Shown here: piece after piece, positions 21,351 to 52,210 of the stretch
How the letters are laid out: each line of letters starts with the position of its first letter
Position numbering within the stretch: the stretch's first letter is position 1
Notes under the pieces: model-generated
Told to the model about the DNA's origin: nothing
The model's input: only the letters and a program-made list of their open reading frames with translations
Database searches by the model: none
Source of the DNA: Candidatus Omnitrophota bacterium
GTDB taxonomy: Bacteria > Omnitrophota > Gorgyraeia > Gygaellales > Profunditerraquicolaceae
Length of the DNA: 64,000 nucleotides
Reading direction: 5' to 3'
Assembly (NCBI GenBank): GCA_028716245.1
Contig: JAQUQW010000005.1
Span: forward strand, 288 to 64,287
Made by a program: the position numbers and the translations under genes

Positions 21351-21419
21351 TAAATAGGGACAGCGACCATTTTTTAAGAACCCTTGGATTCGTAAAAAAT
21401 GGTCGCTGTCCCTATTTAT
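21351..21419. repeat. perfect palindrome (25 bp arms TAAATAGGGACAGCGACCATTTTTT, 19 nt loop); bidirectional terminator-like element / MITE-like pair of the IRs that bound the 49476-51752 insertion
   Basis: Arms at 21351-21375 and 21395-21419 are exact reverse complements. It sits between tRNA-Leu (+) and the 3' end of the minus-strand response regulator. Confidence 0.7.
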
Positions 21420-22354
21420 TAAGGCTTTTCCTGCCGCTTATCTTTGACGTAGTTGCTTTTTTCCATACTTTTGGCAAGTTTCTTTAACTCCGCACCAATC
21501 TCACCAATCTGGGCCACATGCGAGATCTCACGCATTTCATTAGTCACTACGCCGATAGATATTGACAGCAGAGGGATTTTATGGATTTTACTTTGGCGGT
21601 CATAGCCGATGATAAAGCCGTTCTCCCTGTCCTCTTGGTTGTAAAATGACGCAGAGACATTGTCAAAGTCATGAATTATCTTTTCACAGATTTTATTTGC
21701 AAAATCCGGAGTAGTTATAACCACAAAATCATCGCCGCCGATGTGCCCAACAAAATCCTCGGGCCTGCCGTATTCTTTGATAGCGCCCAGCAGAATGCGG
21801 GCGGTTTCCCGGATTACATTATCGCCGTGTTCAAATCCGTATTTGTCATTGTAGGCTTTGAATTTATCTAAATCAGCATAGCATACCGCGAACTGCTTTT
21901 TACTCTCGATGCGCTTGGAAAGTTCATTAAGGATGGCCACGTTTCCGGGCAGCCGGGTAAGCGGGTTTGCTTCAAGGTCTCTTTGCGTGCGCCGTAAGAC
22001 CATGCGTATTCTTGCCAGAAGTTCTTTTGGTTCAAAAGGCTTAACCACATAGTCGTCGGCTCCGGAGTCAATGCCGCCGATTTTATCGCTGACCTCGCCT
22101 TTGCCGGTAACCATAATTACCGGCAGGTGCTGCAATAGCAAATCTTTTTTAACTAAGTCGCATACTTGGCGTCCGTCCATTTTAGGCATTTTGTAATCCA
22201 GAAGCACCAAGTCCAGAGGTTTGGAGCGGATAATCTCCAAGGCTTCTTGGCCATCTACTGCTTCAATAATTTCGTAATTTTCTTCGCAGAGGGTAAGTTT
22301 AAGGATATCTCTTATATCCGGGTCATCATCAGCAATAAGTATTTTTATGCTCAT
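21419..22354 (-). CDS. response regulator, REC + GGDEF domain (motif variant GGDDF, I-site RxxD present)
   Basis: REC with DDD...D...K; GGDEF domain with HIGGDDF preceded by RPED at the canonical I-site position. Confidence 0.8.
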   Translation of the reverse strand: MSIKILIADDDPDIRDILKLTLCEENYEIIEAVDGQEALEIIRSKPLDLVLLDYKMPKMDGRQVCDLVKKDLLLQHLPVIMVTGKGEVSDKIGGIDSGADDYVVKPFEPKELLARIRMVLRRTQRDLEANPLTRLPGNVAILNELSKRIESKKQFAVCYADLDKFKAYNDKYGFEHGDNVIRETARILLGAIKEYGRPEDFVGHIGGDDFVVITTPDFANKICEKIIHDFDNVSASFYNQEDRENGFIIGYDRQSKIHKIPLLSISIGVVTNEMREISHVAQIGEIGAELKKLAKSMEKSNYVKDKRQEKP

Positions 22355-22358
22355 AGTT

Positions 22359-23837
22359 TTATTCGCCAGCCTTAAGAGTAAAGCTGAAAGTTGAACCTTC
22401 GCCGAGTTTGCTTTTTACCCAAATTTTGCCCTGGTGGGCCTCGACAATGTGTTTAACCAGAGTCAGCCCAAGGCCGGTGCCTTTTACCTGCTGATTAATA
22501 GTGTTGTCTACGCGATAAAATTCTTCAAATATATGTTCCTGAGCTTCTTGCGGAATCCCAAAGCCAGTGTCTACAACATCAATCTGGGTTATTTTATTGG
22601 CGCAGTTTGCGTTGATATTAATTTTGCCGTTTTCCGGAGTAAACTTTAGTGCGTTACCGACCAGATTAATAAACACTCTTTCGATCTGGCCGCGGTCAGC
22701 CAGTATCTTTTGGCAATTAGCAGCTAGATTACTGCCAAAACTGATATTTTTTGTTTTTAGTTGTTCGCAAAGTAAGTCGGCAACCTTCTCGATGATAGTT
22801 TTTAAATCCAAACTTTCAATTTTCATATCCACCTTGCCGGATTCAATGCGCGAGATATCCAATAAATCGTTTACCATATGTACCAATTCATCGCTGTGGC
22901 GGTTTATTTTCTCAAGTCTGTTTCTTATTTCATCCGGTATTGTTCCCAGTTTACCGGTAAGTAAAATAGCCGCGTAACCCTTGATCGATGTAAGGGGGGT
23001 CCTTAATTCGTGCGACACGCTGGAGATAAAATCGCTTTTACGTTTGCTTATCTTTTTTCCTTCTTCTAAGGCTTGAGTCAACTGGCGGGTTCTTTCCTCA
23101 ACCTTCATCTCTAATTCCTGCTGCGACCTCCATGTTTTTTCAAAAAGGCGGGCGTTATCTAAAGTCTGGCTGATTTGATTGGCCAATATGCTGATAAATT
23201 CCTGGTCCCCTTTGGTGATGGAAGTTTCTCTATTTTGCGTGCCTACAAAGATGAAGCCCCGGTCTCCCTCCTGAGTGAGCACCGGGCAGATAACAAATGA
23301 ATGCACTAGAAACATCTGGCGGATTTTATCCTTTGATAAGAAGCTCTCGGGCGTAAATTCAGAGGAGGCGCTTACGCCGTTTTGAATTAGGTCCAGAAAA
23401 TAATCTTTGCCGGCATTAATTGCAGTTTCTATCTTTACCGATTCTTCGTCGCTGTATCCCAAGCGTAAGTACGGGCGGAACTCTCTTTCTAAGCTCTTCC
23501 ATAAAAAAGCCAGCGATCTCTCAAATCCCAGCTCTTCCAGGTATTTATTATCTATTTTCTTAAAAATCTGTTTTTCTTCCAGGGTCGTATTTATTTCCCG
23601 GGAAAGTTTTTGCAGCGTATCTAACCCTGAGATTTTTTTATCCAATTCTTCCTGAGCCTTGTTCAACTCCATATCCGTGCGCATGATCAGTTTGGCTTGT
23701 TCATCCATCTCTTCAAGAGAAAGGTTTAAGGCGCTTATCCTGTCCTTTGCTTCCTTTAAGCGTTGTATTTTAGAAAGCAAAGATATCCCCAGAGCGGTGA
23801 CAATTAAACAAATACTAATGAAGATAAAGGAAAGCAT
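22359..23837 (-). CDS. sensor histidine kinase (TM, coiled coil, GAF, HisKA, HATPase_c)
   Basis: H-box SHELRTPL; N, G1 (DTGFGI), and G2 (GTGLGL) boxes. Confidence 0.85.
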   Translation of the reverse strand: MLSFIFISICLIVTALGISLLSKIQRLKEAKDRISALNLSLEEMDEQAKLIMRTDMELNKAQEELDKKISGLDTLQKLSREINTTLEEKQIFKKIDNKYLEELGFERSLAFLWKSLEREFRPYLRLGYSDEESVKIETAINAGKDYFLDLIQNGVSASSEFTPESFLSKDKIRQMFLVHSFVICPVLTQEGDRGFIFVGTQNRETSITKGDQEFISILANQISQTLDNARLFEKTWRSQQELEMKVEERTRQLTQALEEGKKISKRKSDFISSVSHELRTPLTSIKGYAAILLTGKLGTIPDEIRNRLEKINRHSDELVHMVNDLLDISRIESGKVDMKIESLDLKTIIEKVADLLCEQLKTKNISFGSNLAANCQKILADRGQIERVFINLVGNALKFTPENGKININANCANKITQIDVVDTGFGIPQEAQEHIFEEFYRVDNTINQQVKGTGLGLTLVKHIVEAHQGKIWVKSKLGEGSTFSFTLKAGE

Positions 23838-23838
23838 T

Positions 23839-25026
23839 TTATTGATCTCCTATGGCTAAAATATTTATACTCTGGTTGCGGAAATAGGTCTTGCCCAAAT
23901 AATTGATGGATCTAAGCGGAGCCTGTTCTCCTTTGGTGTAGATGCCTATTAACGGGGTGTCTTTACCGAATACTTCTTTAATCACATCGAGCTCTATATC
24001 ATTCTGCCTGCCTAAAAGGGAAAATCTGGCGGCAGAATCAAATACCATCACGAACTTTATTTTTTGCCCTCCCAGGTTTCTCTTTGCTTCTGCGCAGGCG
24101 GCAACCGCAGCTTGCAGGCGGGAATCTACGGTGCTAATCATTAATCTTATTTTACTGTCTTGGGGAACGTCTCCCTGGGTAACTAGCGATCCGTCGTCTT
24201 TTATTGAGATTATATTGCGCAGGAGGTATTCCTTTTCTCCTTGCAGATAAATCCCTATAGGATAGGAAATAGATATGCGTTGTAATTCTTTGGCAAGTTC
24301 TGCCGTATCTTTAGCAAAGTAATCTTCATAAAGCTTTACTGCCGGAGCCCCGTCGATCTCCTGAATAACATTACTGTTTGATTGGGTAACGCAGCGCATT
24401 TTACCCAAAGCAAACCAGCCATGTTTTATGCCGAACCCAAAATTGAATTTTCCGCCAAAAAGTATCCCGCAGCAGGATCCAGAAAGCAGTTCGCCGTTAA
24501 CGTATTGAAATGTTTTTTGATTGGCAAAATTATCCGCAGCCGAGGCCCCGATTAGAGGAAAGCTTCTTCCCAAATTTTCCTGCAAGCCATTGATTAAATT
24601 TGTTCCTTCAGTTATTAGTTTATCCGAGAAGATTATACTTAAGCTCCTGCGCACATTTTTGAAACCATACAATAATTTATTGGCCAACTCTTTGCCCAAT
24701 GTAAACGAAGTGTCCTTGTTAATATTTTTGACCGAGGCGATATTAAAAAAAGTCTGTTGGTTTAAGCTAATGAGTAAAACAGCAAATCCATATTTAAATA
24801 TACCTTTATTGGTCAGGAGCCCCTCGCTGCTGCAGCCAAATATCGGGATTTCTCCCAGCAGGTTATTAACGGTTCTTAATACCAAAGGATGTGCAAATTC
24901 TGGGGAGGTAAAAATAAAGGCCAGGCTTGCCGGCACCTTTCCCAATCCGATTACCGCCTGTCCCATCGCCTCATTAGCAGCTTGGATATGTTCTTTGAGC
25001 TGGCTAAAACCAAAACTTATCTTCAT
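23839..25026 (-). CDS. FIST-domain sensory protein
   Basis: 395 aa; FIST_N/FIST_C-like pattern (..FIFTSPEF.., ..PIFGCSSEG.., ..SGSCCGILFGG..). Adjacent to the HK gene, 2 bp intergenic. Confidence 0.55.
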   Translation of the reverse strand: MKISFGFSQLKEHIQAANEAMGQAVIGLGKVPASLAFIFTSPEFAHPLVLRTVNNLLGEIPIFGCSSEGLLTNKGIFKYGFAVLLISLNQQTFFNIASVKNINKDTSFTLGKELANKLLYGFKNVRRSLSIIFSDKLITEGTNLINGLQENLGRSFPLIGASAADNFANQKTFQYVNGELLSGSCCGILFGGKFNFGFGIKHGWFALGKMRCVTQSNSNVIQEIDGAPAVKLYEDYFAKDTAELAKELQRISISYPIGIYLQGEKEYLLRNIISIKDDGSLVTQGDVPQDSKIRLMISTVDSRLQAAVAACAEAKRNLGGQKIKFVMVFDSAARFSLLGRQNDIELDVIKEVFGKDTPLIGIYTKGEQAPLRSINYLGKTYFRNQSINILAIGDQ

Positions 25027-25731: not shown

Positions 25732-27810
25732 ATGGGTATTGTCCATAAGCTTAAGCCTGAAGTTTTGAACTTTATTCTCGAAAATAAACAAAGAGATTCT
25801 ACCTTAAGCTGCCGCACTTTAACACAGTTAATTCTTGAAAAACTCCAAATCAAGGTTTCCAAATCAAGTATTAATAGTATTTTTAAAGAACATAATTTGA
25901 GTATGCCTGTTGGCAGGAGGCAAAAAGTTAAGAAGAGAAAGTTCAACCTGCCTATCTTGCCGGTTATTGAAGGGACTAAAGCTATTACGCTGGTTACTGC
26001 GCCGCAAAGAATAGAGCCGAAGGTAGCCGAAGGAGCAGGTAAAGAAGGAATTATTAAGAAAGAAAAAAAAGAAGAGATTAGTTTGGAAGAAAAACGCATC
26101 AAGGAAGCAGAAGAGTGGGCTATGAAATTGCAAGATGAGGAGCGGGCAAGAGTAGAGCAGCGGTTGAATCTTGAAAAACAGAGAGTAGAAAATGATGCAA
26201 AGAGAAAAGCTGATGAGGCGGAAGTAAAAGTTCTTTTGGAAGAGGCAGCCAGGGTCAAGGCTCAAGAAGAACTAAAGTTACGCCAACAGGAGAAAGCCGC
26301 TCAAGAAGCAGCGGAGAAAAAACGATTAGAAGAGAAAAACCTTAAGCGCATCGAGGAGGAGCGGGCTGCGCAGGAGGCTGCTAAGAAGGCCGAAGAAGAG
26401 AAGGCTGCTCAAGAAGCAGCGCTAAAGGCTGAAAAAGAAAAATGGGCAAGGCTTGCGGAAGAAGAGCTTAAGGTCAGGCAGCAAAAGGAAAAAATGCCTC
26501 AAGAGAGGATTTGTTCGGGGGCAATATTGCTTAAGGCATTGGATTCTCTGATTGGCGGCAGCAGAGAAATTAATGCGGCTATTTGTAAGAAATTAGGGGT
26601 TGCCCCGGAAGAATCTTTGAACCTTACGGAAGCGGTAATATTCAGGTCTTTATTCGGTAAAGACAATCTTGCCGGGCTTTGCGATTTAATTGGCCAACAA
26701 TATTCTCAAGAGAGGCTGGATAATTATTCTAGCCAGATCAAGGGGATTGAAAATATCAAATCAGAAATCAACGGGATTATCTCCGCTGCTTTTACCGAGG
26801 CCAGAGGGGTGAAGGTGCATTTTATCGACGGAAGCGTTATTCATCTGGATGGCCAGCTGCATTCTACCTGGTCTACCCAGTACGTCCCTTATGATTTTTC
26901 AAGCCCAGCCTCTGAACTGAAAAACAGCTTAAATAAATATTTTTTTGAAAACCGGCCTTTAGTTTTATTTTCCGCTCCCGGCTATGATATTGCGCCAAAA
27001 GATTTTTTCAGCCTACTTTTGAATATCGGTTCAACCGATAAATACCCGGATAACTTAATTTTATTCGGAAATAAATTGGAAGAGATAGAAAAAATATCTT
27101 TAGGTAATAAAAATAAATATTCCCTGGTTTTTGGCCTTTGGCCCTGGCAATTTACCAGCAGCCGCAAAGTCAGGAAAATCGGGAATTTTGATTTAAGGCG
27201 CATTGAGGGCATAGATAAGGACCTGTATCTGGCGGAGATTGAGATTGATTTATTGCGGGTACCTTTGGATCAAAGCGTAACCTTAAAAGGCTGCGCTATA
27301 AAAACTACCCCCGCGGAAAAAATCCGTTTGGTTGTCCTTAGCAATCCTGAAAAGCCGCTGAGCCTAGATGAACTGGCAGGGATATATTTAAACCGTTGGC
27401 CTAATTTTGAGGAGGCATTTCAGGATTTTAATCGTAAAATCGAACTTTTTTCTTATACCGGCAACGAACAAAAGTTTCTTTCCAAAGATAGGTTTGAGTT
27501 TGGCGCGCAAGGATCGAATCTAGAATTGAGGGATATCTTTGCCAATTATATTAGAATGCTGGATCTTTATCTGCGGTGGCATTTTTTGCCGGCAGAATAT
27601 ACTGAAAAGGACCTTTCTTTTACCAGTAAAAATTTCTATCAAATCCCGGTACTTATTACTGTCGGCCCCGGTAAAATTAGAGCAAAAATACAGCTTGACC
27701 AGGGGCATGAATTCCTGAAAGATTTGAAATATCTTGTCTGCCGGCTTAATGAGCGGCAGATAGATTTGCTAAATGGGACGCGCCTTTATTTTGAGACTGT
27801 TCTCAAATAG
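25732..27810 (+). CDS. large hypothetical protein: N-terminal HTH, K/E/A-rich coiled coil, C-terminal domain possibly DDE-transposase-like (IS4-type Y-R-E-K-like signature)
   Basis: 692 aa with an N-terminal HTH-like segment, ~150 aa of AEEEKAAQEAA-type repeats, and a C-terminal YLNRWPNFEEAFQDFNRK block resembling the IS4 Y(2)R(3)E(6)K signature. I did not find terminal inverted repeats. Confidence 0.5.
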   Translation: MGIVHKLKPEVLNFILENKQRDSTLSCRTLTQLILEKLQIKVSKSSINSIFKEHNLSMPVGRRQKVKKRKFNLPILPVIEGTKAITLVTAPQRIEPKVAEGAGKEGIIKKEKKEEISLEEKRIKEAEEWAMKLQDEERARVEQRLNLEKQRVENDAKRKADEAEVKVLLEEAARVKAQEELKLRQQEKAAQEAAEKKRLEEKNLKRIEEERAAQEAAKKAEEEKAAQEAALKAEKEKWARLAEEELKVRQQKEKMPQERICSGAILLKALDSLIGGSREINAAICKKLGVAPEESLNLTEAVIFRSLFGKDNLAGLCDLIGQQYSQERLDNYSSQIKGIENIKSEINGIISAAFTEARGVKVHFIDGSVIHLDGQLHSTWSTQYVPYDFSSPASELKNSLNKYFFENRPLVLFSAPGYDIAPKDFFSLLLNIGSTDKYPDNLILFGNKLEEIEKISLGNKNKYSLVFGLWPWQFTSSRKVRKIGNFDLRRIEGIDKDLYLAEIEIDLLRVPLDQSVTLKGCAIKTTPAEKIRLVVLSNPEKPLSLDELAGIYLNRWPNFEEAFQDFNRKIELFSYTGNEQKFLSKDRFEFGAQGSNLELRDIFANYIRMLDLYLRWHFLPAEYTEKDLSFTSKNFYQIPVLITVGPGKIRAKIQLDQGHEFLKDLKYLVCRLNERQIDLLNGTRLYFETVLK

Positions 27811-27917: not shown

Positions 27918-28823
27918 ATGAGGCGCAAAAACCCGTCGGTTACTCTTGTCTGTGTATTATCGGTTTTATTTTTATGCTTATCCGGCTGCGACCAGGTTAA
28001 AAAGTTAAAAATTCCTCCCAAAGCTAAATCCTGGCAGCCACAGGGAACGGTGGTTGCCTACGTTAATGACCTGCCTATTACTTCAGAGCAGTTAGACCAG
28101 GAAATCAGCACTTATAATGAATCTACAAGTAATCCCGAAGCTAAAATCAATACTCGCGAACAGAAAGTTGCCTACTTAAACGAAGAGTTAATCCGGCGCT
28201 ACCTTTTGTATTTAGAGGCAAAGGCCAGGGGTCTGGATAGGCAGCCGAAAACCCAGGAACTCTTGGGAAACCTGGAAGTTAATATTTTAGCCAGCCAGAT
28301 TCTCCATGACGAAATAGATAATATAACGGTTACCTCCTCGGAAATTGAGGAATTTTACAATACCTTTAAAGACCAGTACCGTCAGGAAGAAGAAAGAAAA
28401 ATCAGGGAGATTGTTTTGGATAGCGAGACAGAAGCAAAAGATATTCTTATAGAGTTGCTTAAAGGCGCGGATTTCGCTACCTTGGCGATGCAGCGTTCAA
28501 AAGCGCAAAGCGCCTCAGCCGGAGGGGATTTAGGGTTCATCAAAAAGGGCAAGCGCGGCGCGGATTACAGCCGTTTTGATGAAATAGCTTTTTCGCGTTC
28601 ATTGGAAGCAGGCCAGCTAAGCACCGTTTTTAAGGAAAAGAACGGTTACTACATAATAAAGATAGAAGCGATAAAAGGCGGCCAGGTAAGGGCTTTATCC
28701 GAAGTATGGGATGAGATTAAAAGGAGCGTTCTGTTCCTTAAGCAGCAGCAAAAATTAAAGGAAATTACCACGGGCTTATTAAAGAAAACTAAAGTAGTCA
28801 TATACCAGGACCTGATAAAATAA
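27918..28823 (+). CDS. PpiC/parvulin-type peptidyl-prolyl isomerase lipoprotein (PrsA/SurA-like)
   Basis: Lipobox LSGC and a parvulin domain (GGDLGFIKKGKRGADYSRFDEIAF...). Confidence 0.7.
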   Translation: MRRKNPSVTLVCVLSVLFLCLSGCDQVKKLKIPPKAKSWQPQGTVVAYVNDLPITSEQLDQEISTYNESTSNPEAKINTREQKVAYLNEELIRRYLLYLEAKARGLDRQPKTQELLGNLEVNILASQILHDEIDNITVTSSEIEEFYNTFKDQYRQEEERKIREIVLDSETEAKDILIELLKGADFATLAMQRSKAQSASAGGDLGFIKKGKRGADYSRFDEIAFSRSLEAGQLSTVFKEKNGYYIIKIEAIKGGQVRALSEVWDEIKRSVLFLKQQQKLKEITTGLLKKTKVVIYQDLIK

Positions 28824-29728
28824 TGAAAATAGAATTAAGAAGAAAATTCCCCCTGATTATCGCGGTTGTCTGCGGGATCGCGGCGATAATCTTGCTCAAC
28901 CTTTATCTTAAGAGCAGAGAAGGTGAAATCTGGGATAAGATGAGGCAAGCGGAACAAAAGGCCCAGGCTGCCAAACCAAAAGTGACCATGGGGGTTGTAC
29001 TGGTGGCAAAAAGAGAGATTCCGGTGCAGACGCCGATTACCGCCGAAGACCTTACATTTAGACAGGTGCCAATGGAATATATCCAGCCCGGCGCAGTTAC
29101 TTCTCTTGAACAGGTTATCGGCCAGATTGCTTCCGGTCCGATCGGCGCCGAAGAGCAGATACTGAGCACAAAACTTCTTCCTCCCGGAAATATCGGAAAG
29201 ACCCTTTCGGAAATTACGCCTGAAGGCAAGAGAGCAGTAACTGTTTCCGTGGATAACCTTGTCAGTATTGCCGGTTTACTAAAACCCGGAGATTACGTGG
29301 ATATATTCGCGCTCATTGCTTTGCCTAAGAAGACCATATCGCAGACAAAAGAAGAATCAGATCCGCGCTTAATCTCGCTTTTTCAAGGGGTGCAAGTATT
29401 GGCAATGGGAAATGAGCTGGTTGCTTCAAAATCTAAAACAAAAGAAAATGCGGCTACCGCGGCGCAAACCGTTACTTTCGCGCTTACGCCTCAAGAAGCG
29501 GTGTTACTTTCTTTTGTCCAGGAACACGGCAAGATTAAATTAGCCCTGCGTTCCTCGCAGGATACCAAGGTTGAGGCGGTTGCACCGGCTGATTGGGATA
29601 CCCTATTAAATTATTTATCCACCAGCCAGGGGGAGAAAGCCGGTTTGGAAGGCCAGCCGGTAGTTGAGATCTACCGCGGCTTGCAAAAAGAAATTGTTCC
29701 CCTATCAGCATCGAACAAACAAAAATGA
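28823..29728 (+). CDS. cpaB: Flp pilus assembly protein CpaB/RcpC (SAF + CpaB domains)
   Basis: N-terminal TM, SAF-like domain (REIPVQTPITAEDL...), CpaB C-domain; 1 nt overlap with the upstream gene. Confidence 0.75.
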   Translation: MKIELRRKFPLIIAVVCGIAAIILLNLYLKSREGEIWDKMRQAEQKAQAAKPKVTMGVVLVAKREIPVQTPITAEDLTFRQVPMEYIQPGAVTSLEQVIGQIASGPIGAEEQILSTKLLPPGNIGKTLSEITPEGKRAVTVSVDNLVSIAGLLKPGDYVDIFALIALPKKTISQTKEESDPRLISLFQGVQVLAMGNELVASKSKTKENAATAAQTVTFALTPQEAVLLSFVQEHGKIKLALRSSQDTKVEAVAPADWDTLLNYLSTSQGEKAGLEGQPVVEIYRGLQKEIVPLSASNKQK

Positions 29729-31377
29729 GGAATATTCTTAAACTCACATTTCTACTGTTTTTTATTTTGTCCGCGGCGCAGGCCTATCCGGAAGAGTTGA
29801 AAGTTATAACTTTATACGTCGCAGAAGGCAAGGTTGTGTCCGTAAATACTCCTACCCGGGTGGTGATCAATAATCCTAATGTTATTGACGTTACTTCAGT
29901 AAGCAAGGAGGATATGTTGCTGGCGGCCAAAAGTCCAGGCACAACCAATTTAGTCTGGTGGGATGCCGCCGGGCAGCATTCATTGCGGGTAGAGGTTTTT
30001 CAGGAAGATATGAATTTGGTTAAAAAAAGGATAGATACCTTATTAAAAGAATTGAACCTTCCCGGGGTTTTTACGCGAGGCTCGGATAGCGAAGGCAAGG
30101 TTTTACTTTTAGGAAGCGTAAAGCAGCCTGCGGATTTAGAGCGTATCGATACGGCATTAAGTTCGCTTAAAGGGAAAACCGCCAATCTTATCCAGCTAAA
30201 GGAAGAAAGGGCGGTAGTAGAGATTAAAGTGCAAGTCCTGGAATTAAATAAAGATGCCACCTCGAGTTTAGGTTTTAGTTTTCCAGGTTCCATCGATATT
30301 ACCGACATCGGCTCGCCAGGACTAGCTGCCGCAGGCACAAGCTGGGGAAAGTTATTTAAGGTATCGAATGTAGGCCGTGGTGCTTTTAATTTGACATTGG
30401 ATGCTTTGGTTCAGGAAGGCAAGGCGCGCATACTTTCTCAGCCCAGGCTTGCTTGCCAAAGCGGCAAGGAAGCTGAGTTGTTAGTCGGCGGAGAAAAGCC
30501 GATATTTAATACCAGTATAGCGGCTACAAGCGGAGCCAGCGGCACAAATATAGAATATAAAGAATTCGGCATTAAATTAAAAATAAAACCCACAATAACC
30601 GAAGATAAACAGATTAAATTGGCATTGAATGTGGAAGTCAGCGACGTGGGCACAGCGGAAACCATCGGTTCAACGGGCGGGAGCACGACTACGACTACGG
30701 CCTTGGCGTATCCTTTAAGCAAACGCAACGCATCCACCCAGCTTTTTGTTAATGACGGCCAGATGATGGCTATCGGCGGGTTGATCAAGCAAAAGACCGA
30801 GGAGGATGTCCGCAAAACTCCTTTCCTGGGGGATGTACCAGTGTTGGGATTATTTTTTAGGAAAAAGTCAACCAAGGTAGGAGGTGGTCAAGGAGAGAGA
30901 GGCGATACAGAGCTGTTGATTACGCTTACCCCTACTATTATAAAAGAACAACCCGTGCTTGCTGAAACAGCTAAGGCCCAGGCGTCCCCTTCAGCCGTCA
31001 ACGTACCTATAACCAGAGAAGGCGCTAAAAGCGCAGAGTCCTTGCCCGCTAAAACTAAAGTACTTTCTCCTGCCGAAATAACCAGCCAGGCGTTGTCCGA
31101 ATACATGCACAAAATTAGCAAACGCATACAGGACAATTTCGTTTATCCTTGGGCAGCCAAACAAGGCAAAATGCAGGGAACGGTAAGATTAGGTTTGCGG
31201 CTTGATTCTATGGGCACGCTCTTAGAGGTTGAGGTTAAACAGTCATCAGGATACAACATATTTGATGAGAACGCAGTGAGTATGGTTAAAAAATTATCTC
31301 CTTATCCTCCGTTTCCTGCACAGCTCAAGCAAAAGGAACTCCGGGTAGATCTCCCTATCGTCTATAAACTGGATTAA
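29725..31377 (+). CDS. cpaC: Tad secretin CpaC/RcpA with C-terminal TonB_C-like domain
   Basis: Signal peptide, BON-like N-domains, and a secretin domain (...FLGDVPVLGLFFR...TELLITLTP...). A ~140 aa C-terminal extension reads YPWAAKQGKMQGTVRLGLRLDSMGTLLEVEVKQSSGYNIFDENAVSMVKKLSPYPPFP, like a TonB C-terminal domain. Confidence 0.75.
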   Translation: MRNILKLTFLLFFILSAAQAYPEELKVITLYVAEGKVVSVNTPTRVVINNPNVIDVTSVSKEDMLLAAKSPGTTNLVWWDAAGQHSLRVEVFQEDMNLVKKRIDTLLKELNLPGVFTRGSDSEGKVLLLGSVKQPADLERIDTALSSLKGKTANLIQLKEERAVVEIKVQVLELNKDATSSLGFSFPGSIDITDIGSPGLAAAGTSWGKLFKVSNVGRGAFNLTLDALVQEGKARILSQPRLACQSGKEAELLVGGEKPIFNTSIAATSGASGTNIEYKEFGIKLKIKPTITEDKQIKLALNVEVSDVGTAETIGSTGGSTTTTTALAYPLSKRNASTQLFVNDGQMMAIGGLIKQKTEEDVRKTPFLGDVPVLGLFFRKKSTKVGGGQGERGDTELLITLTPTIIKEQPVLAETAKAQASPSAVNVPITREGAKSAESLPAKTKVLSPAEITSQALSEYMHKISKRIQDNFVYPWAAKQGKMQGTVRLGLRLDSMGTLLEVEVKQSSGYNIFDENAVSMVKKLSPYPPFPAQLKQKELRVDLPIVYKLD

Positions 31378-31378
31378 T

Positions 31379-33556
31379 ATGGCCCAGATTATTTCTATTT
31401 TTAGCACCAAAGGCGGCGTAGGAAGGACCTTTATTGTCACCAACCTTGCCATTGCCTTAGCGCAAAAAATAACCAAAGGCAAAAAGGTTTTACTTTTTGA
31501 TACTGATTTACAGTTGCCGGGCAATATGGCGATGCTCTTGAATTTAAAGCCAAAAAAGCCCTTGGTTGATCTTATCCCCGAATGGCGTAAAGGTAATTAT
31601 ACGCCCTCCCAGATTGGCGAATATATCCTTCATTATCCCGCCGCAAGTATGGACCTGCTTCCCCTGGTCTTAACTGCCGAAGAAAGGCCGTATGTAGATG
31701 AAAAATTTATCTCTTGCGTTCTGAGCGATTTGATTAAGGAATACGAATTTATCGTTTGCGATAGCGGCAGGACATTTAATAAAGCGCTTGTGGCTATCCT
31801 TGAACAGACAAATTTGATTTTGCTGGCGATTAATCCCGACATCCTTTCGGTTTATCAGGCAAAAGAAGATATCAAGACACTGCAGTCACTATATTTTCCC
31901 GCCAAGATGATGCGTGTGGTTTTAAACCGCGCGGAAAGCACCGGCGCGGTATCCTGGCAGGAGGTAAGGGCGGCTTTGCCCTGCGATATCATCAGCCGCA
32001 TCCCGTCGGAGGGCAGGGTTGTGGGCTCGGCCTTAAACCGCGGCATACCCGTTGTGTTGGATAGTCCGCGCTCGCGCGTAAGTATTGTGCTGGATAAATT
32101 AGCTGAAGATTTAATCGCTCACCCGGATTTTTTTATCTCCCATAAAAAATTGGAAGCAGCTGTTCCGGCTGTGGAAAAAAAGAAAGAATTTTTAGAAGAG
32201 GATACCTCTTCTTTGGAATCCCTTTCCTTGGGCGGCCGTAAGCCCATTGAGAGAAAACTTACCGGCGAAGAGAAAATAGACGACTTAAAACAACGGGTGC
32301 ACAAGCGCGTTATTCAGGAATTGGATCTACGGCGCCTGGATCGCGTAGCCGGGGACCTGACAAAAATCGCGGATTTACGCCAGAAGACAATGAAAGCGAT
32401 TAATATCGCGCTAACTGATGAAGCCGGGGCGCTTATTTCTTCGCGGGAGGAGCGGGAGCGCCTGATCAAGGAGATCAGTGACGAAATTTTGGGCCTGGGC
32501 CCTTTGGAAGATTTGATCAATGACCCCGAAATTACCGATATTTTAGTTAACAATAAGAGCCAAATCTACATCGAAAAGCACGGCAAGTTAGAGTTAGTTT
32601 CCAAGCGTTTCGTATCCAATGATCAGGTGCGCCAGATAATCGAGCGCATTATCGCGCCCTTAGGCAGGAGGGTGGATGAGTCGGTGCCGATGGTTGACGG
32701 CCGGCTTTCCGACGGTTCGCGGGTTAACGCGATCATTCCTCCGCTTTCCCTTACCGGGCCGACGCTGACGATCAGGAAATTCAGCCAGGAGCGGCTTAAG
32801 GTTAATGATTTAGAACGGCTGAATGCTTTAAATAATACAATGGGAGAATTTCTTAGAGCCTGCGTTGTCTGCCGCAAGAATATAATTATTTCAGGAGGCA
32901 CCGGCTCAGGAAAAACTACGGTTTTAAATGTGCTCTCCGAGTTTGTTCCCGAAGGAGAAAGGGTGATCACGATTGAAGATGCCGCGGAATTAAAGCTCGA
33001 CCACCAGCACTGGATCCGCCTGGAGTCGCGGCCGCCGAATATTGAAGGGAAAGGGGCGATTTTCGTGCAAGATTTGTTCAGGAATTCTCTGCGCATGCGG
33101 CCTGACCGGATTATCATCGGAGAATGCCGCGGCCAGGAAGCTTTGGATATGCTCCAGGCGATGAACACCGGCCACGACGGCTCGATGACTACCATCCATG
33201 CTAACTCCACCCAAGATGTCTTAGCGCGCCTGGATTCGCTGATCCTGATGAGCGGTATCGAGATTCCCCTGCGGGCAATCCGCGAGATGATTGCCTCAAG
33301 CATCGATATGATCGTCCATACCGCCCGTTTTTCCGACGGCTCAAGAAAGATTACCCAGATAACCGAAATTACCGGGATGGCCGACGAGATGCATATCGGA
33401 TTAAACGATATATTTATTTTTGAGCAGTCCGGTATTGACAGCCAGGGAAAAGTCCAGGGAGAGTTTAAAGCCACAGGAATATTGCCGACCTTTCTAGATG
33501 ACCTACGCAAAAGTGGCAGTATCTTTTCAGAAGAAGTATTCAAAAAGAAAGAGTAA
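31379..33556 (+). CDS. fused CpaE/TadZ-like (MinD/ParA-fold) + CpaF/TadA secretion ATPase
   Basis: N-terminal KGGVGRTF deviant Walker A (CpaE-like). The C-terminal T2SSE ATPase has GGTGSGKTT, a DxxE box, an RPDRIIIGECRGQEA Asp box, and an NTGHDGSMTTIHANS His box. One 725 aa ORF. Confidence 0.8.
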   Translation: MAQIISIFSTKGGVGRTFIVTNLAIALAQKITKGKKVLLFDTDLQLPGNMAMLLNLKPKKPLVDLIPEWRKGNYTPSQIGEYILHYPAASMDLLPLVLTAEERPYVDEKFISCVLSDLIKEYEFIVCDSGRTFNKALVAILEQTNLILLAINPDILSVYQAKEDIKTLQSLYFPAKMMRVVLNRAESTGAVSWQEVRAALPCDIISRIPSEGRVVGSALNRGIPVVLDSPRSRVSIVLDKLAEDLIAHPDFFISHKKLEAAVPAVEKKKEFLEEDTSSLESLSLGGRKPIERKLTGEEKIDDLKQRVHKRVIQELDLRRLDRVAGDLTKIADLRQKTMKAINIALTDEAGALISSREERERLIKEISDEILGLGPLEDLINDPEITDILVNNKSQIYIEKHGKLELVSKRFVSNDQVRQIIERIIAPLGRRVDESVPMVDGRLSDGSRVNAIIPPLSLTGPTLTIRKFSQERLKVNDLERLNALNNTMGEFLRACVVCRKNIIISGGTGSGKTTVLNVLSEFVPEGERVITIEDAAELKLDHQHWIRLESRPPNIEGKGAIFVQDLFRNSLRMRPDRIIIGECRGQEALDMLQAMNTGHDGSMTTIHANSTQDVLARLDSLILMSGIEIPLRAIREMIASSIDMIVHTARFSDGSRKITQITEITGMADEMHIGLNDIFIFEQSGIDSQGKVQGEFKATGILPTFLDDLRKSGSIFSEEVFKKKE

Positions 33557-35859
33557 TGAATTTCTTCCGCAAAAACCAACCACTAAACCAACGCAGCCAG
33601 ATTGCCGTGATTATCACCTTTGTCATCGCGGTGATTTTTTTATTTATCGCGGTATTTATAAACCTCGCCAAAGTAAGTCAGACTAAGACTACAACCAGCA
33701 CTGCCGCGGATAAGGCCGCTTTGAGTTTAGCTTCGCAGCTGGGCAGTATGAGCCATTATTATAAGGATAAAGTGTTAAAGCTAAGCGGTTCGTCTTGTGC
33801 CACTCCTCCCTGCCAGGCATGTGACACTGATTGGTTGAGTTTAGCGACAATAATAGTGGCAATAGTTGGAGTTGCAGTTGGTATTTTTATTCCTCCAGTA
33901 GCACTTGGTGCCGCCGTTATAATGGGTGCGATTGCTATCAATTCGGCATTGCTCGGTGGAATAAACACGAAATTTAAGGAAATGACTGGATACAATGCTT
34001 CTCGAGAGAGTACATTATTCCAGGCCCTTCGCGATACCCAAAGCGATGATGTTGAGTTAAAAAGTATGGGGGCAGGCCTTTTTCGTGATGCGGAAACCGG
34101 CAAGGTTTACGATTTAAGTACTATTCCTGAAATGCGCAATGAAAAGAAAGTAAGCAGATTTGCCGCTTGGTATTATTTTTTGAGGCTTCCTTTGGTAGGC
34201 GACGAGGCGATGAAAAGAAGTTTAGATATATTTTTATTGGAGGGGATAAGGAGGTTTGTTGATGTGGATGAGTGGGATTCCAACCAATGGAAGATTAATA
34301 AGTTATCTTATGTGATTGGACCAGGTAATGGAAGCAGCAATTACGATGTGACCTGCTCCGCATCCTGCCCGGATTGGGTAAAAACCCCCGCGCAAGGACT
34401 GTTAAGAATGGTAAGGATGGATACTTCGGATAATGTCTACGGTGGATTTTTAAAGGATAAACTTCTTAGCTTATTACAGCGGTTAGAATGCGCATATGGT
34501 TTAACCTTTTGTAGCTCATTAGGGATATGCAGCAGTCTGACAGTAAGTTGCGGCGACGTAAATAACCTGATTGAAGATTTGAGAGAGTTTTTGTTAAGAA
34601 GCAAAGAGGTGTTAAACCTGCCGGTTTCTAAGCGGCTCGAACAATTAACACAATGGTTTCCGCTATGGTATAATTTTAAATATCATTGCGATCATCGATG
34701 GTTTAAAGACAGCTCGGGTAACTGTATCGATCCAAATAGCGACCCCAACCTAAATGACGACTATAAATACGATATTTATTTGCGCTTGACCCGCGACCAG
34801 ATTAAAATTAAGAGTTGGATTGCCGAGCTGCAAACTTTAAACAATAATAGAATTGTTCCGGATATAGCAAAGAAACACGGGGAATGTACTTGGGGCAGAG
34901 GTGCTTCAGTTAGTAGTACCTGTTATACGCAATACGGTTGCAGCACTTCTGAATGCGGTTGTCACTGTTGCGGCAGCGATTGCAGCGATTGTTGCTGTAA
35001 TACCTGTTGTTATCCGTCTTCTAGAAAATCACCCTGTGCTTGGGAAGGAACATATTATACTTGCGATCAGAATCCGCCCGTCTGTAGGAGTGGAGATTTA
35101 TATGGCGCAGTCCCAGGCTGGTGCGGTTCTCGCGCAGACCATGCAGGGTGCCATAGTAACTGTGGATGTGATGTCCAAAATTTTGATACTACTACTGGTG
35201 GAGCAAAAGATTTCCAAGGCCAGTTATCCTGGCGTCCTCCTATGGCGGGAAATTCGGATGGCACTGATAAGCCGACTGAAGTTGATCAGGCAATCAGAAT
35301 CCTGGGTGCCTTAAATGATGATCTCGCCAGGATAAAGACGTCTATTGGTGATTTAGCGGATAGCGTAGCGGCTAATCTGTCCAACACAGACGCTAAAAGA
35401 AATGAGATTATTTATGCCTGGAAGGATAAGCCCAAGGCGGATGGCAGCCAGCAATTTTCTCACTTTGTCAAAGTAAAGATTACTGGTTACCCTGAGAAAT
35501 TACCCAATATTACTGAAAGTACGGGATGGGGGTGGGTAGGAATTATTCCTGCTCCACAGAAGTGCCGCACGTTAAACGATTACCAGGGTGATTTTACGAT
35601 AAGCACCTGGCGTTATGACCAGGATCAGCCAACGGATATAGCCGGATGGAAACTGAAGCGCAGGAAAACACCCTCTACCGCTGAATTTGTCCCTGCACAA
35701 TTAGAAAAAATAGTAGCGGATGTCCAGGATAACGCTAAGATAGATTCAACCCAAAGTTATGTTGCTTCGATTTTAGACTACTCGATTGCCAGTTGCAGCC
35801 AAGCGCATTACGGACCGGAAAAAAGCGACATTTATATAACCGGAACTCAATGTGAATAA
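33556..35859 (+). CDS. TadG/TadE-like large pilus-associated protein with cysteine-rich region
   Basis: N-terminal TM followed by AADKAALSLASQ (Tad PF13400-like). 767 aa. A Cys cluster reads CGCHCCGSDCSDCCCNTCCYP. Confidence 0.5.
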   Translation: MNFFRKNQPLNQRSQIAVIITFVIAVIFLFIAVFINLAKVSQTKTTTSTAADKAALSLASQLGSMSHYYKDKVLKLSGSSCATPPCQACDTDWLSLATIIVAIVGVAVGIFIPPVALGAAVIMGAIAINSALLGGINTKFKEMTGYNASRESTLFQALRDTQSDDVELKSMGAGLFRDAETGKVYDLSTIPEMRNEKKVSRFAAWYYFLRLPLVGDEAMKRSLDIFLLEGIRRFVDVDEWDSNQWKINKLSYVIGPGNGSSNYDVTCSASCPDWVKTPAQGLLRMVRMDTSDNVYGGFLKDKLLSLLQRLECAYGLTFCSSLGICSSLTVSCGDVNNLIEDLREFLLRSKEVLNLPVSKRLEQLTQWFPLWYNFKYHCDHRWFKDSSGNCIDPNSDPNLNDDYKYDIYLRLTRDQIKIKSWIAELQTLNNNRIVPDIAKKHGECTWGRGASVSSTCYTQYGCSTSECGCHCCGSDCSDCCCNTCCYPSSRKSPCAWEGTYYTCDQNPPVCRSGDLYGAVPGWCGSRADHAGCHSNCGCDVQNFDTTTGGAKDFQGQLSWRPPMAGNSDGTDKPTEVDQAIRILGALNDDLARIKTSIGDLADSVAANLSNTDAKRNEIIYAWKDKPKADGSQQFSHFVKVKITGYPEKLPNITESTGWGWVGIIPAPQKCRTLNDYQGDFTISTWRYDQDQPTDIAGWKLKRRKTPSTAEFVPAQLEKIVADVQDNAKIDSTQSYVASILDYSIASCSQAHYGPEKSDIYITGTQCE

Positions 35860-38443: not shown

Positions 38444-38995
38444 ATGAATATAGGAAAATATAATTTGCGCAAGGCAAGTATAAATATTTTTGCAGCGTTA
38501 CTTTTTATTACCGCCAATGCTTATGCCCAAGACCCGGAAAAGGAAATGTTCGATAAAGGCAATGACTATTTTAAAAGTAAGCTCTACGATAGGGCGATTA
38601 GCGCGTTTAATACCGCCATTCAGATTAAGCCGGGTTATAGCGCCGCGTATTATCACCGGGGGCGTGCCTACGCTGAAAACGGGGACATTGACCAGGCAAT
38701 CTCTGACTACGCCAAGGCAATAGAACTCAACGCTAATTATACAAAGGCATATTATCGGCGTGGCCTTGCCTATGCTAAAAAGGGTGATCTTGATCAGGCA
38801 ATCTCTGACTACGCCAAGGCAATAGAACTGGATCCCAAATTAGCCGGGGCTTATAATAACCGGGCCAGCGCGTATTTTCTAAAGCAGGAATACAATAAAT
38901 GCTGGGAAGATGTCCACAGGTTAGAAGCGTTGGGCGAGAAACCGCATCCTGAATTCCTTGAGCAATTGAAGAAGTTATCCGGCAGGGAAAGGTGA
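38444..38995 (+). CDS. secreted TPR-repeat protein (TadD-like candidate)
   Basis: Signal peptide and at least 4 TPR units; exact internal 35 bp duplication (38693-38727 = 38799-38833). Confidence 0.6.
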   Translation: MNIGKYNLRKASINIFAALLFITANAYAQDPEKEMFDKGNDYFKSKLYDRAISAFNTAIQIKPGYSAAYYHRGRAYAENGDIDQAISDYAKAIELNANYTKAYYRRGLAYAKKGDLDQAISDYAKAIELDPKLAGAYNNRASAYFLKQEYNKCWEDVHRLEALGEKPHPEFLEQLKKLSGRER

Positions 38996-41739: not shown

Positions 41740-42477
41740 GTGCTTAAATTTTCGGTCATCATCTCGGTATACAATGAAGAACAGGCAGCCGCCCAGCTCT
41801 ACTATTCTTTAAAGAAAGTTATGGATGGATTAGGGCAAGCTTATGAAACTATTTTTGTAAATGACGGTTCAACCGACAAGAGCCTGGATATGCTAAAGAG
41901 TATTAACTTAAGCCCGGCGAATTTAGTCATTGTCGACTTAGATAAACATAGAGGACAATCTACGGCTTTGCAGGCGGGGTTTGATATTTCCCGGGGAAAG
42001 TTTATCATTACCATGGATGGCGACCTGCAGAATGATCCTGAGGATATCCCCCGTATGCTGGATAAGCTGCAAGAGGGCTATGATCTTGTTTGTGGCTGGA
42101 GGCATAACCGAAAAGATCCCCGGATTAAGGTAATTATTTCTAATCTTGTTTCTTTTTTTCTTCGGCTTATGGTAAAGCAGAATATCCATGATTTTGGCTG
42201 TCCCATGAGAATCTTAAAAAAAGAAGCCTTAAAGGATGTCTATTTGTCTAAAGGAATGCATAGATTTTTTACTTTACTAATGTTTAAATTGGGATATAAG
42301 ATTGGAGAAGTTGAAGTGAATCATCGTCCACGAAGATTTGGAAAGTCAAAATACAATATACACAACAGATTATTTGAGTGCCTATTTGTTTTTTTACGCA
42401 TTTCATTATATGATATCCGTAACTTAAGGGAATACCATGAACCGGATTATAAGATTAAGGGGGTAATTAGAAAATGA
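41740..42477 (+). CDS. GT2 polyprenyl-phosphate glycosyltransferase (DPM1/ArnC/GtrB-like)
   Basis: SVIISVYNEE, DGSTDKS, and TMDGDLQNDPEDIP motifs; 245 aa. Confidence 0.8.
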   Translation: MLKFSVIISVYNEEQAAAQLYYSLKKVMDGLGQAYETIFVNDGSTDKSLDMLKSINLSPANLVIVDLDKHRGQSTALQAGFDISRGKFIITMDGDLQNDPEDIPRMLDKLQEGYDLVCGWRHNRKDPRIKVIISNLVSFFLRLMVKQNIHDFGCPMRILKKEALKDVYLSKGMHRFFTLLMFKLGYKIGEVEVNHRPRRFGKSKYNIHNRLFECLFVFLRISLYDIRNLREYHEPDYKIKGVIRK

Positions 42478-42815
42478 AGATTATTAATTTAAGCAAAAAC
42501 GCGGTCTTAGCAGATAAGGCAAGGATGGCGGATACCTTCTGGAAGCGGCTGGTAGGGTTGCTTAACCGCAATTCACTGGAAAAAGGAGAAGCACTCGTTC
42601 TAAAACCGGCAAACAGTATACATACATTTTTTATGGGTTTTCCCATAGATGTCTTATTTTTAGACAAAAATGGAAAGGTTATTGGTTTGTTTCCTGTGTT
42701 TAGGCCTTTTCACATTACCTCTGTTTATTTTGGCGCTTCTCTAGCTATTGAACTGCCCGCGGATACCCTCCGGCTTACTCAAACAAAATTAGCGGATAGC
42801 ATTAAAATCGAATAA
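42474..42815 (+). CDS. DUF192 (COG1430) family protein
   Basis: 113 aa; ...RLVGLLNRNSLEKGEALVLKP.NSIHTFFMGFPIDVLFLD...; 4 nt overlap with the upstream GT2. Confidence 0.5.
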   Translation: MKIINLSKNAVLADKARMADTFWKRLVGLLNRNSLEKGEALVLKPANSIHTFFMGFPIDVLFLDKNGKVIGLFPVFRPFHITSVYFGASLAIELPADTLRLTQTKLADSIKIE

Positions 42816-43098: not shown

Positions 43099-43365
43099 GT
43101 GCAAAATAAAAAGGTGTTTCTCGACGATAATAAGAGTTTAAGAATGAATTATTTTATGCAGTTTATAATGGCTTTTAAAAAGGCCGATAGAAGCCATCTT
43201 GCGCAAAAAAATTTTTCTGATAAAAAAGCGCAATCAATATTTGAATATGTCATATTAACGGCAGTTGTAGTGACGACTGTTTTAATTTTTGGGCCGTATT
43301 TCGGTAAGATAAAAGATTCTTGTGACAAAGCTTTTAATGCCGCGGTTACGGAGATAGTAAAATGA
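43099..43365 (+). CDS. divergent Flp-type pilin-like protein (true start probably internal)
   Basis: ...KKAQSIFEYVILTAVVVTTVLIF... pilin-like segment. Confidence 0.4.
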   Translation: MQNKKVFLDDNKSLRMNYFMQFIMAFKKADRSHLAQKNFSDKKAQSIFEYVILTAVVVTTVLIFGPYFGKIKDSCDKAFNAAVTEIVK

Positions 43366-43505
43366 GAAACAAAGCGCAAAGCACAATTGAATACGCGTTA
43401 TTAATTGCCATTGTGGCAGCGGCATTTTTGGCGATGAATGCGTATATGCAGCGTTCGGTACAGGCAAATTTTAACGTAATTGAAGAGCAGATAAATGCGC
43501 AGTAA
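43362..43505 (+). CDS. Flp-family pilin (47 aa; below the ORF-track size cutoff)
   Basis: MRNKAQSTIEYALLIAIVAAAFLAMNAYMQR...; ATGA overlap with the upstream gene. Confidence 0.6.
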   Translation: MRNKAQSTIEYALLIAIVAAAFLAMNAYMQRSVQANFNVIEEQINAQ

Positions 43506-43526
43506 TTAGAAGGAGGGAGGTTAAAG

Positions 43527-43694
43527 ATGCGTAACAAAAAGGGCCAGAGTATCTTGGAGTACGTGATTGTATTAACCGTCATAGTTATAGCGGTTGCTCT
43601 AGCGGCGACCAAGTGGATTAAACCCGCGGTTGATCAGGGATTAAATGATGCTTCAAAAAGTATTAATAATGCTACAGGGCAATTGCCAAAATAA
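43527..43694 (+). CDS. Flp-family pilin (55 aa) with canonical G/XXXXEY site
   Basis: MRNKKG|QSILEYVIVLTVIVIAVALAA...; RBS AGGAGGGAGG. Confidence 0.7.
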   Translation: MRNKKGQSILEYVIVLTVIVIAVALAATKWIKPAVDQGLNDASKSINNATGQLPK

Positions 43695-43717
43695 TTATTT
43701 TAGGGGAGGTGAATAAG

Positions 43718-44071
43718 ATGTTTAACAAAAAGGGCCAGAATACAGCGGAATACGCGATACTTATCGCGTTGATAATCGCGGCAGCAGTGGGAATGCAGAC
43801 TTACGTTAAAAGGGGCTTACAGGGAAGGGTGCATGAGGCGGTTAGGAATACCGGCCAGGCACTACCAGATGTGGGAGGTGCCAGTTTGAGTTTTAGCGGC
43901 AACCAGTATGAACCGTATTATACTGAGTCTGACACAAAAGTAAAAAGCGCCAGAACTGCTCAGGAAACACTGGGTAACCGCGGCCAGATTACCCGCTCTA
44001 ACGTACAAGAAGCAACCACGGTTGATATTGGAGGAACTGAGAAAGTCAATAGCACAGCCGGAGCTGATTAA
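43718..44071 (+). CDS. Flp-type pilin with ~80 aa C-terminal extension
   Basis: MFNKKG|QNTAEYAILIALIIAAAVGMQTYVKRGLQGR...; RBS GGGGAGGTG. Confidence 0.65.
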   Translation: MFNKKGQNTAEYAILIALIIAAAVGMQTYVKRGLQGRVHEAVRNTGQALPDVGGASLSFSGNQYEPYYTESDTKVKSARTAQETLGNRGQITRSNVQEATTVDIGGTEKVNSTAGAD

Positions 44072-44084
44072 GGAGGTGAATAAG

Positions 44085-44763: not shown

Positions 44764-44764
44764 A

Positions 44765-47565: not shown

Positions 47566-47568
47566 AAA

Positions 47569-48581: not shown

Positions 48582-48583
48582 AG

Positions 48584-50107: not shown

Positions 50108-50153
50108 GACCGCATTTATGATCTCAAAAATGGTTCGCTATCCCTAATTAACT

Positions 50154-52044: not shown

Positions 52045-52210
52045 TGGGTGTAAGTTGAAATGCCTTTTTTATTTGAAAACTTAGTAAGAAATTTTAAAAA
52101 CATTTTAAAATCCGGTAATCTCTTATGAAAAGAAGCTTCATTAAAAAAATGAAAAGTCTTGGGGTAAGGGGAAATATTTATTTTTTATTTAATACTATAG
52201 AAAATAAAAG

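Follow-up and report, generated by a model that had tools for sequence, protein, structure and literature searches.

Tad pilus secretins of Omnitrophota carry a C-terminal TonB_C domain, a possible periplasmic tether

The Tad pilus locus of a Candidatus Omnitrophota bacterium (contig JAQUQW010000005.1) encodes an outer-membrane secretin that ends in a folded TonB_C domain. The stretch of DNA that we analysed, referred to below as the window, is 64 kb long and has a G+C content of approximately 38–48%. The secretin and its TonB_C tail are encoded by a single uninterrupted open reading frame (ORF) of 550 residues at positions 29725–31377 of the forward strand. The same architecture recurs across the Omnitrophota, and we propose that the tail may fasten the secretin pore to the cell envelope.

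Domain structure of the secretin and the fold of its tail

The domains of the protein, its relatives in the PDB and its operon identify it as a Tad secretin of the RcpA/CpaC type. A Sec signal peptide, MRNILKLTFLLFFILSAAQA, was read from the sequence at 29725–29784 (+), with the cleavage site between AQA and YP. The T2SS-T3SS_pil_N domain, an N-terminal β-sandwich, spans residues 27–91 (29803–29997, +; PF13629, 6e-14) and was modelled with a predicted local distance difference test score (pLDDT) of about 90. The secretin pore domain is formed by residues 227–407 (30403–30945, +; PF00263, 1.1e-41, 142.7 bits relative to a cutoff of 27.5). The secretin matches among PDB sequences include 8jvb (2e-32) and the RcpA structure 8odn (2e-26), and these alignments stop at residues 408–414 of the query. 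The pore domain is followed by a disordered linker, or leash, rich in alanine, glutamate, proline, serine and lysine (residues 408–448; 30946–31068, +). The TonB_C domain comprises residues from approximately 449 to 550 (31069–31374, +), with its start placed at residue 449 or 452 (nucleotide 31069 or 31078). The C-terminus of the secretin is formed by the last strand of TonB_C, followed by 0–3 variable residues. No membrane anchor was detected after the signal peptide: the highest 19-residue Kyte-Doolittle window beyond residue 30 reaches 0.75, and none in the entire ORF exceeds 1.6.

The initial annotation, prepared from the nucleotide sequence alone, claimed that the tail segment YPWAAKQGKMQGTVRLGLRLDSMGTLLEVEVKQSSGYNIFDENAVSMVKKLSPYPPFP (residues 474–531) matches TonB_C and proposed checking it by a search with PF03544 and by structure prediction. 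Both analyses were performed, and the match was borne out far beyond chance. PF03544 TonB_C aligned to residues 471–549 with an E-value of 5.2e-17 and 62.5 bits, compared to a gathering cutoff of 24.6, and the Pfam family TonB_2 aligned to residues 458–536 (3e-9). The NCBIfam model TIGR01352 (tonB_Cterm) matched residues 474–549 (1.4e-14, 54.1 bits, cutoff 27.1). When a sequence profile of the tail was compared with PDB sequences, the best match was the C-terminal domain (CTD) of Helicobacter pylori TonB (8e-11), followed by HasB (1.6e-6) and then by other TonB proteins. The AlphaFold2 (AF2) model of the tail alone has a pLDDT of 95.2 and a predicted template modelling score of 0.83; it displays the fold of TonB, HasB, FusB and TolA C-terminal domains and is composed of a long helix and a short helix followed by a β-β-α-β arrangement. 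The Foldseek search of the PDB at E<0.03 returned only members of the TonB/TolA C-domain superfamily. These include H. pylori TonB-CTD (TM-score 0.76), HasB, FusB and domain III of TolA, as well as complexes of TonB with BtuB, FhuA, FoxA and TbpA. The agreement of curated hidden Markov models (HMMs), the PDB profile comparison, the AF2 model and Foldseek demonstrates that the secretin tail is a genuine TonB_C domain.

The annotated extent of the domain had to be corrected. A C-terminal domain is present, as claimed, but of the approximately 140 residues ascribed to it only the last 100 or so are folded, and residues 408–448 belong to the disordered linker. The full-length AF2 model, calculated from an alignment of 34 sequences, has a pLDDT below 30 for residues 409–447 and of 81–92 for residues 449–550. 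The start given in the initial annotation, 30950, is one base out of frame with the ORF, in which residue 410 begins at 30952.

Ten residues of the tail, Y460, Y474, P475, G485, L489, G497, S508, G509, D514 and F530, are invariant over 34 sequences. The hallmarks of TonB that are invariant or nearly invariant in these 34 diverse homologues are the YP motif (Y474 and P475), G485, G497, the SSG motif (507–509), D514, the PYPPFP loop containing F530, and the final strand ELxxxxPIxY, which reads ELRVDLPIVY in this protein. The tail resembles the C-terminal domains of TonB, HasB and FusB in its fold, N-terminal helix, YP and SSG motifs and proline-containing final strand. The stretch ahead of the domain is charged and enriched in proline, and it may be a counterpart of the TonB spacer. 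Unlike TonB, the protein has no N-terminal transmembrane helix and no ExbB or ExbD encoded nearby, and it is anchored in the outer rather than the inner membrane through its secretin part. Domain III of TolA belongs to the same fold superfamily (2x9a, 3qdr, 1lr0 and 6s3w were among the matches). However, the full-length TolA model TIGR02794 (tolA_full) scored 32.5 bits, below its cutoff of 59.45, whereas the TonB models passed theirs, and no TolQR or Pal context is present.

Conservation of the fusion and variation of its linker

An HMMER scan of 1.84 billion representative sequences, clustered at 50% identity, yielded 321 clusters at E≤1e-30, of which the best 150 were examined. Both the secretin and the TonB_C domain were detected with our own HMMs in 145 of these 150 representatives, whose identity ranges from 57% down to 30%. 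Of the five exceptions, four are fragments; P0263, the remaining one, breaks off within its coiled-coil linker and is apparently truncated. All of the top 120 homologues obtained with clustering at 90% identity, reaching down to 49% identity, contain the pil_N, Secretin and TonB_C domains. A search of GTDB contigs, with one genome per species, identified 277 matching loci, and 80 of them were examined. The TonB_C tail is present in 81 of 81 secretin ORFs, namely those of the window, of locus L001 and of 79 of the 80 fetched loci; three genomes among the fetched loci contain two such loci each.

The named sources of these sequences are all Omnitrophota, save for automated labels: 11 'uncultured Planctomycetales', two 'bacterium' and one partial 'Hydrothermarchaeota'. 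Secretins were stated in the initial annotation not to end in TonB_C domains normally. This is true of secretins with solved structures and of the closest CpaC relatives from other phyla; however, within the Omnitrophota sources that we examined the fusion is the rule, not an oddity of one genome. Exclusivity to the Omnitrophota is not proven by the 80 of 277 loci and the best 150 of 321 clusters that were examined. The same continuous ORF occurs in hundreds of independent assemblies from NCBI, JGI, ENA and Logan, and this conservation effectively excludes a sequencing or assembly artefact that joined a secretin to a tonB fragment. A decaying remnant is ruled out as well, because the tail is under purifying selection that has kept its ten invariant residues.

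The linker is the most variable part of the protein. Its length ranges from 23 to 85 residues in alignment A1 and from 10 to 351 residues among the 145 representatives, and some lineages have charged helical linkers of 200–350 residues. It is composed of 14.7% glutamate, 10.8% alanine, 10.2% lysine and 7.3% proline, compared to 3.7% proline in the secretin part. Repeats of the (EP)n(KP)n type are not clearly present, and some members have helical tails rich in lysine and glutamate instead. The long helical linkers of some family members, rich in lysine, glutamate and alanine, resemble domain II of TolA. Averaged over sequence pairs, identity amounts to 72% for the pore domain, 50% for pil_N and 48% for TonB_C, and drops to 19% for the linker. 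The difference between the last two values indicates that TonB_C is under selection and that the leash is merely a spacer.

Two copies of TonB_C, separated by helical stretches rich in lysine, glutamate and arginine, were found in nine representatives and in one whole sub-branch of Omnitrophota that includes 'Omnitrophica bacterium 4484_213'. The secretins of this sub-branch (P0267, P0241 and P0281–P0284) are 1016–1109 residues long and contain long charged helices between the copies. Both TonB_C copies of P0267 (1091 residues) and their flanks are letter-for-letter identical, so that the assembly may be at fault or the duplication very recent. One protein of the P0241 cluster, P0270, carries the label 'Hydrothermarchaeota archaeon', probably due to a binning error. 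A search for relatives with another C-terminal domain in place of TonB_C yielded none among the long family members, which have only longer linkers or two TonB_C domains.

Tad secretins of other phyla have add-ons of different kinds. The CpaC-type secretins of Armatimonadota (P0384, P0371, P0362 and P0389) contain N-terminal LysM and BON domains and no TonB_C. Secretins of the Acidobacteriota type (P0363 and P0326–P0393) have, like those of Omnitrophota, a C-terminal extension, which is 160–290 residues long and consists of a proline- and alanine-rich part followed by a coiled coil rich in lysine, glutamate and alanine. Unlike the Omnitrophota tail, these extensions end without a globular TonB_C domain: the tail HMM gave no match at E≤1, and Pfam none in the two that were checked. 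Periplasmic add-ons to Tad secretins are therefore varied as well as common, and the TonB_C tail is the version found in Omnitrophota. The N-terminal LysM and BON domains and the coiled-coil C-terminal tails are suggestive, and they are not positional equivalents of TonB_C.

The Tad locus and its missing partners

The secretin shares its signal peptide, pil_N domain and Secretin pore with Pseudomonas aeruginosa RcpA (8odn) and Caulobacter CpaC, and its operon contains RcpC/CpaB, TadZ, TadA, TadB/TadC and Flp pilins, as the RcpA/CpaC systems do. Neighbouring gene families were clustered within ±8 kb of the 81 related loci. The gene of the secretin fused to TonB_C, which defines position 0 in all 81 loci, is preceded by RcpC at position −1 (78 loci), a lipoprotein rotamase similar to PpiC and SurA at −2 (71 loci) and a small protein with two transmembrane helices at −3 (37 loci). 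It is followed by a fusion of TadZ and TadA at +1 (69 loci), a DUF192 protein at +2 (55 loci), and a helix-turn-helix-like (HTH-like) protein of about 574 residues at +3 or +4 (51 loci). Flp pilins lie downstream of this conserved core, and a divergent unit of FIST, histidine kinase and response regulator–GGDEF genes lies upstream. The window keeps the core at 27.9–35.9 kb, the pilins at 43–47.7 kb and TadB/TadC at 47.7–49.5 kb.

The rotamase of the window (27918–28823, +) is a PpiC-type lipoprotein with a SurA-like N-terminus (Pfam Rotamase_2/3 and SurA_N_3). Its lipobox is LSGC, and the consensus of the loci at this site is 'GCdK'. A role as chaperone or pilotin dedicated to the secretin is possible. 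The RcpC/CpaB alignment-complex protein is encoded at 28823–29728 (+; PF16976, 4e-25, and SAF). The gene downstream of the secretin (31379–33556, +) encodes a 725-residue protein in which a ParA/MinD-like TadZ/CpaE (CbiA/AAA_31, residues 3–191) is fused to the ATPase TadA/CpaF (T2SSE, residues 372–646); TadZ/CpaE and TadA/CpaF are separate proteins in the studied Tad systems. The next gene (33556–35859, +) encodes a TadG-like, cysteine-rich protein of 767 residues. Its N-terminus is weakly similar to TadG/TadE, with a match to Tad PF13400 at residues 15–57 that is below the cutoff (8.5e-4), and its middle part is extremely rich in cysteine, for example CGCHCCGSDCSDCCCNTCC. The array of genes for Flp-type pilins and pseudopilins (43099–47739, +) contains at least eight consecutive members starting with K[GA]QS..EY. 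Two genes with Flp leaders are unusually large, encoding 409 residues (44711–45940) and 339 residues (46307–47326), and both are without a Pfam match. The platform proteins TadB and TadC (47736–49468, +) were identified by T2SSF PF00482 with E-values of 5e-18 and 7e-15.

The divergent unit of FIST sensor, histidine kinase and response regulator with GGDEF domain is located at 21419–25026 (−) and is kept in 26–36 of the 81 loci, which suggests control of the pilus by cyclic di-GMP. A 692-residue protein (25732–27810, +) has an HTH-like N-terminus and a coiled coil of approximately 200 residues that is rich in lysine, glutamate and alanine. It belongs to the family with a median length of 574 residues, which has no Pfam match above the cutoff and is usually located downstream of the secretin. 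The DUF192 protein, which lacks a signal peptide and follows TadZ-TadA in most loci (13855–14196 in L001), is found in the window at 42474–42815 (+). There, a glycan-related insertion of genes for a GH3/PIG-L fusion, TPR, PMT_2, radical SAM and GT2 proteins has shifted it about 9 kb downstream. A stop-free frame of at least 3931 codons (52208–64000, +) lies just downstream of the Tad genes and runs off the end of the window. It has a Peptidase_C39-like match at approximately residues 240–330 (2e-7); such giant proteins are typical of Omnitrophota. Remnants of mobile elements include an rve integrase (5886–6488, −), a convergent pair of ORF6N-domain-like genes (49595–50498) and a cysteine-rich ORF of 332 residues without a Pfam match (50517–51515, −); the ORF6N-like pair and the cysteine-rich ORF lie between TadC and the giant ORF.

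Partners of a TonB system are missing from the locus. No ExbB, ExbD, TolQR or TonB-dependent receptor was found in the window among scanned ORFs of at least 120 residues. Such families are also not among the recurring neighbours in the 81 loci, as judged from cluster consensus and inspection rather than from a full HMM scan. No second TonB_C-like ORF is present in the window or in the fetched loci. Since the secretin lacks the membrane helix of TonB and no stator is encoded nearby, the fusion protein is not a TonB-like transducer of proton-motive-force energy. The conserved core of the 81 loci also contains neither a TadD-like TPR lipoprotein nor an OmpA-like CpaD. A small TPR protein of the window (38444–38995) was considered as a TadD-like pilotin and rejected, as it has a normal signal peptide without a lipobox and recurs in three loci only. 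Two strands resembling TonB boxes, 'GTViAkVN' of the rotamase and 'ITLYVGE' of the secretin, were rejected as ordinary first strands of their own domains.

Proposed role of the tail

The C-terminus of solved secretins is located in the periplasm outside the barrel, where it serves as a docking site for accessory factors, and C-terminal domains of TonB and TolA bind their partners by β-strand augmentation of their own sheet. Based on the domain architecture and the composition of the loci, we propose that the tail is a passive, built-in periplasmic module that tethers or docks the pore to the envelope, and we estimate the probability of this role at about one half. The initial annotation had suggested a tether to peptidoglycan or to a partner, which we likewise regard as plausible. 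In this view, the secretin would have gained at its C-terminus everything periplasmic from a TonB-like protein, both TonB_C and the flexible leash with its charged residues and prolines, minus the membrane anchor. Each subunit of the ring, presumably numbering about 13–14 as in P. aeruginosa RcpA, would suspend one TonB_C domain, or in certain lineages two, in the periplasm on the outside of the barrel. The domains may grip an abundant ligand of the envelope through their β-strand-augmentation surface. The candidate ligands are an exposed strand of a protein associated with the outer membrane or the wall, and peptidoglycan itself; we lean slightly towards the protein strand. Such a tether would keep the pore stable or in position when the pilus pulls on it, and a module in cis would replace accessories that act in trans, such as the pilotin TadD or the wall anchor CpaD.

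The variation of the linker from 10 to 351 residues and the duplication of TonB_C argue for an abundant, position-independent ligand rather than a single fixed site in the machine. The N-terminal LysM of Armatimonadota secretins, a wall-binding module in cis from another phylum, and the usual binding of accessories at secretin C-termini were also counted in favour of the tether. AMIN domains of PilQ are accessory wall-binding modules of a secretin, and together with the Armatimonadota LysM and CpaD they resemble the TonB_C tail in being envelope modules of variable copy number on or around a pilus secretin. These other add-ons are N-terminal or act in trans and have established peptidoglycan-binding folds, whereas TonB_C sits at the C-terminus and is established as a binder of protein strands. 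Several considerations weigh against the tether, and its weakest link is the ligand. The structurally characterised ligands of the TonB_C fold are not known to include anything but specific protein strands, in keeping with the complexes among the Foldseek matches, and the biochemical literature on peptidoglycan binding by TonB C-terminal domains is limited. Where other Tad secretins have a fused wall-binding module, it is positioned at the N-terminus, not the C-terminus. Furthermore, the periplasmic location of the tail is presumed by analogy with solved secretins.

The tail could alternatively act in assembly. TonB_C would capture a strand of the co-encoded PpiC/SurA-like lipoprotein, or of another lipoprotein, which would guide secretin monomers to the outer membrane and aid their folding and oligomerisation. 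The tail would then be functionally equivalent to the S-domain of type II and type III secretins or to the C-terminal tail of RcpA. The frequent presence of the rotamase with its GC lipobox at position −2, the conserved core without a TadD-like lipoprotein and the role of secretin C-termini as the usual pilotin-binding sites (PMC10499894) are all consistent with this possibility. Nevertheless, a stoichiometric partner at a defined site is ill-suited to linkers of such different lengths and to duplicated domains, and the rotamase strand GTViAkVN resembles an ordinary strand of the SurA N-domain rather than a dedicated TonB box. Piloting by a lipoprotein is the main alternative to the tether, and we consider it unlikely.

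Two further explanations borrow from the canonical functions of TonB. A stator of the ExbD, TolR or AglS type, encoded elsewhere in the genome, might contact TonB_C from below, so that the proton-motive force would gate or assemble the pore or be coupled to pilus dynamics. The tail retains the fold of genuine TonB C-terminal domains together with their YP and SSG motifs and the motif of the final strand, which would fit such coupling, and the 200–350-residue helical linkers of some lineages could span the periplasm like domain II of TolA. However, stator genes are absent from the window and from the recurring neighbour clusters inspected at the 81 loci, many linkers are only 10–30 residues long and too short to reach the inner membrane, and canonical coupling requires the transmembrane helix of TonB, which is missing here. 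An energised secretin is improbable. The same low probability applies to a TonB system of reversed polarity, in which TonB_C hung from the secretin would be engaged by an ExbBD-, TolQR- or AglRQS-like stator or by the pilus platform. If it were true, the Tad pore of predatory or parasitic nanobacteria would be gated, assembled or braced by the proton-motive force or by pilus retraction force, which would make for a new type of energy coupling at a secretin. It is still less probable that the tail recruits TonB-dependent transporters by binding their TonB boxes, thereby clustering them at the pore or competing with the TonB of the cell. The TonB box is the canonical ligand of the TonB_C fold, and TonB-box complexes (2gsk, 2grx, 6i97 and 9dc4) are among the fold matches of the tail. 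Nonetheless, no TonB-dependent receptor was found in the window or recurring near the loci, and a preprint on complete Omnitrophota genomes reports that the loci it covered lack canonical TonB-dependent receptor/Sus architecture (10.64898/2026.06.07.730766).

Full-text literature searches found no description of a secretin fused to TonB_C. The main paper on Omnitrophota (Seymour et al. 2023) discusses the phylogeny of RcpA and never mentions TonB, and a 2026 preprint merely notes 'TonB-domain content' in two Omnitrophota gene neighbourhoods (10.64898/2026.06.07.730766). The architecture is visible through automatic database annotation, and so it is not hidden, but it has been left uninterpreted. 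NCBI names these proteins, including the entry that is 100% identical to the secretin of the window (P0001), 'TonB family protein', which is misleading because they have neither the TonB membrane anchor nor an association with ExbBD. The label hides Tad secretins and wrongly suggests TonB-dependent uptake.

The targeting and stabilisation of Tad secretins and their attachment to the wall are unsettled and seem to vary with the lineage, with TadD serving in Pseudomonas and CpaD together with CpaI in Caulobacter. In P. aeruginosa, RcpA binds the pilotin TadD, a TPR lipoprotein, through its last four residues, and this binding is essential for assembly (PMC10499894). Cryo-electron tomography and modelling of Caulobacter CpaC suggest a belt of the OmpA-like lipoprotein CpaD, which may link the secretin to the peptidoglycan wall (PMC13170226). 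Unlike RcpA with its short TadD-binding tail, the Omnitrophota secretin has a leash and a folded TonB_C domain, and no equivalent of TadD or CpaD is conserved at its locus. Omnitrophota are tiny and mostly unculturable, and their Tad pili are thought to serve in attachment to host cells or in predation on them (PMC10066038). The domain of approximately 100 residues provides a laboratory-expressible handle for finding the envelope partner. As a feature of a poorly understood phylum, the fusion is clear, testable and phylogenetically sharp; it is established at the level of domain architecture, and its mechanism is a proposal. It adds an outer-membrane-anchored protein to the known uses of the TonB/TolA C-domain fold, and the presence of a TonB-type docking domain within the secretin across the phylum points to a third way of securing the Tad pore.

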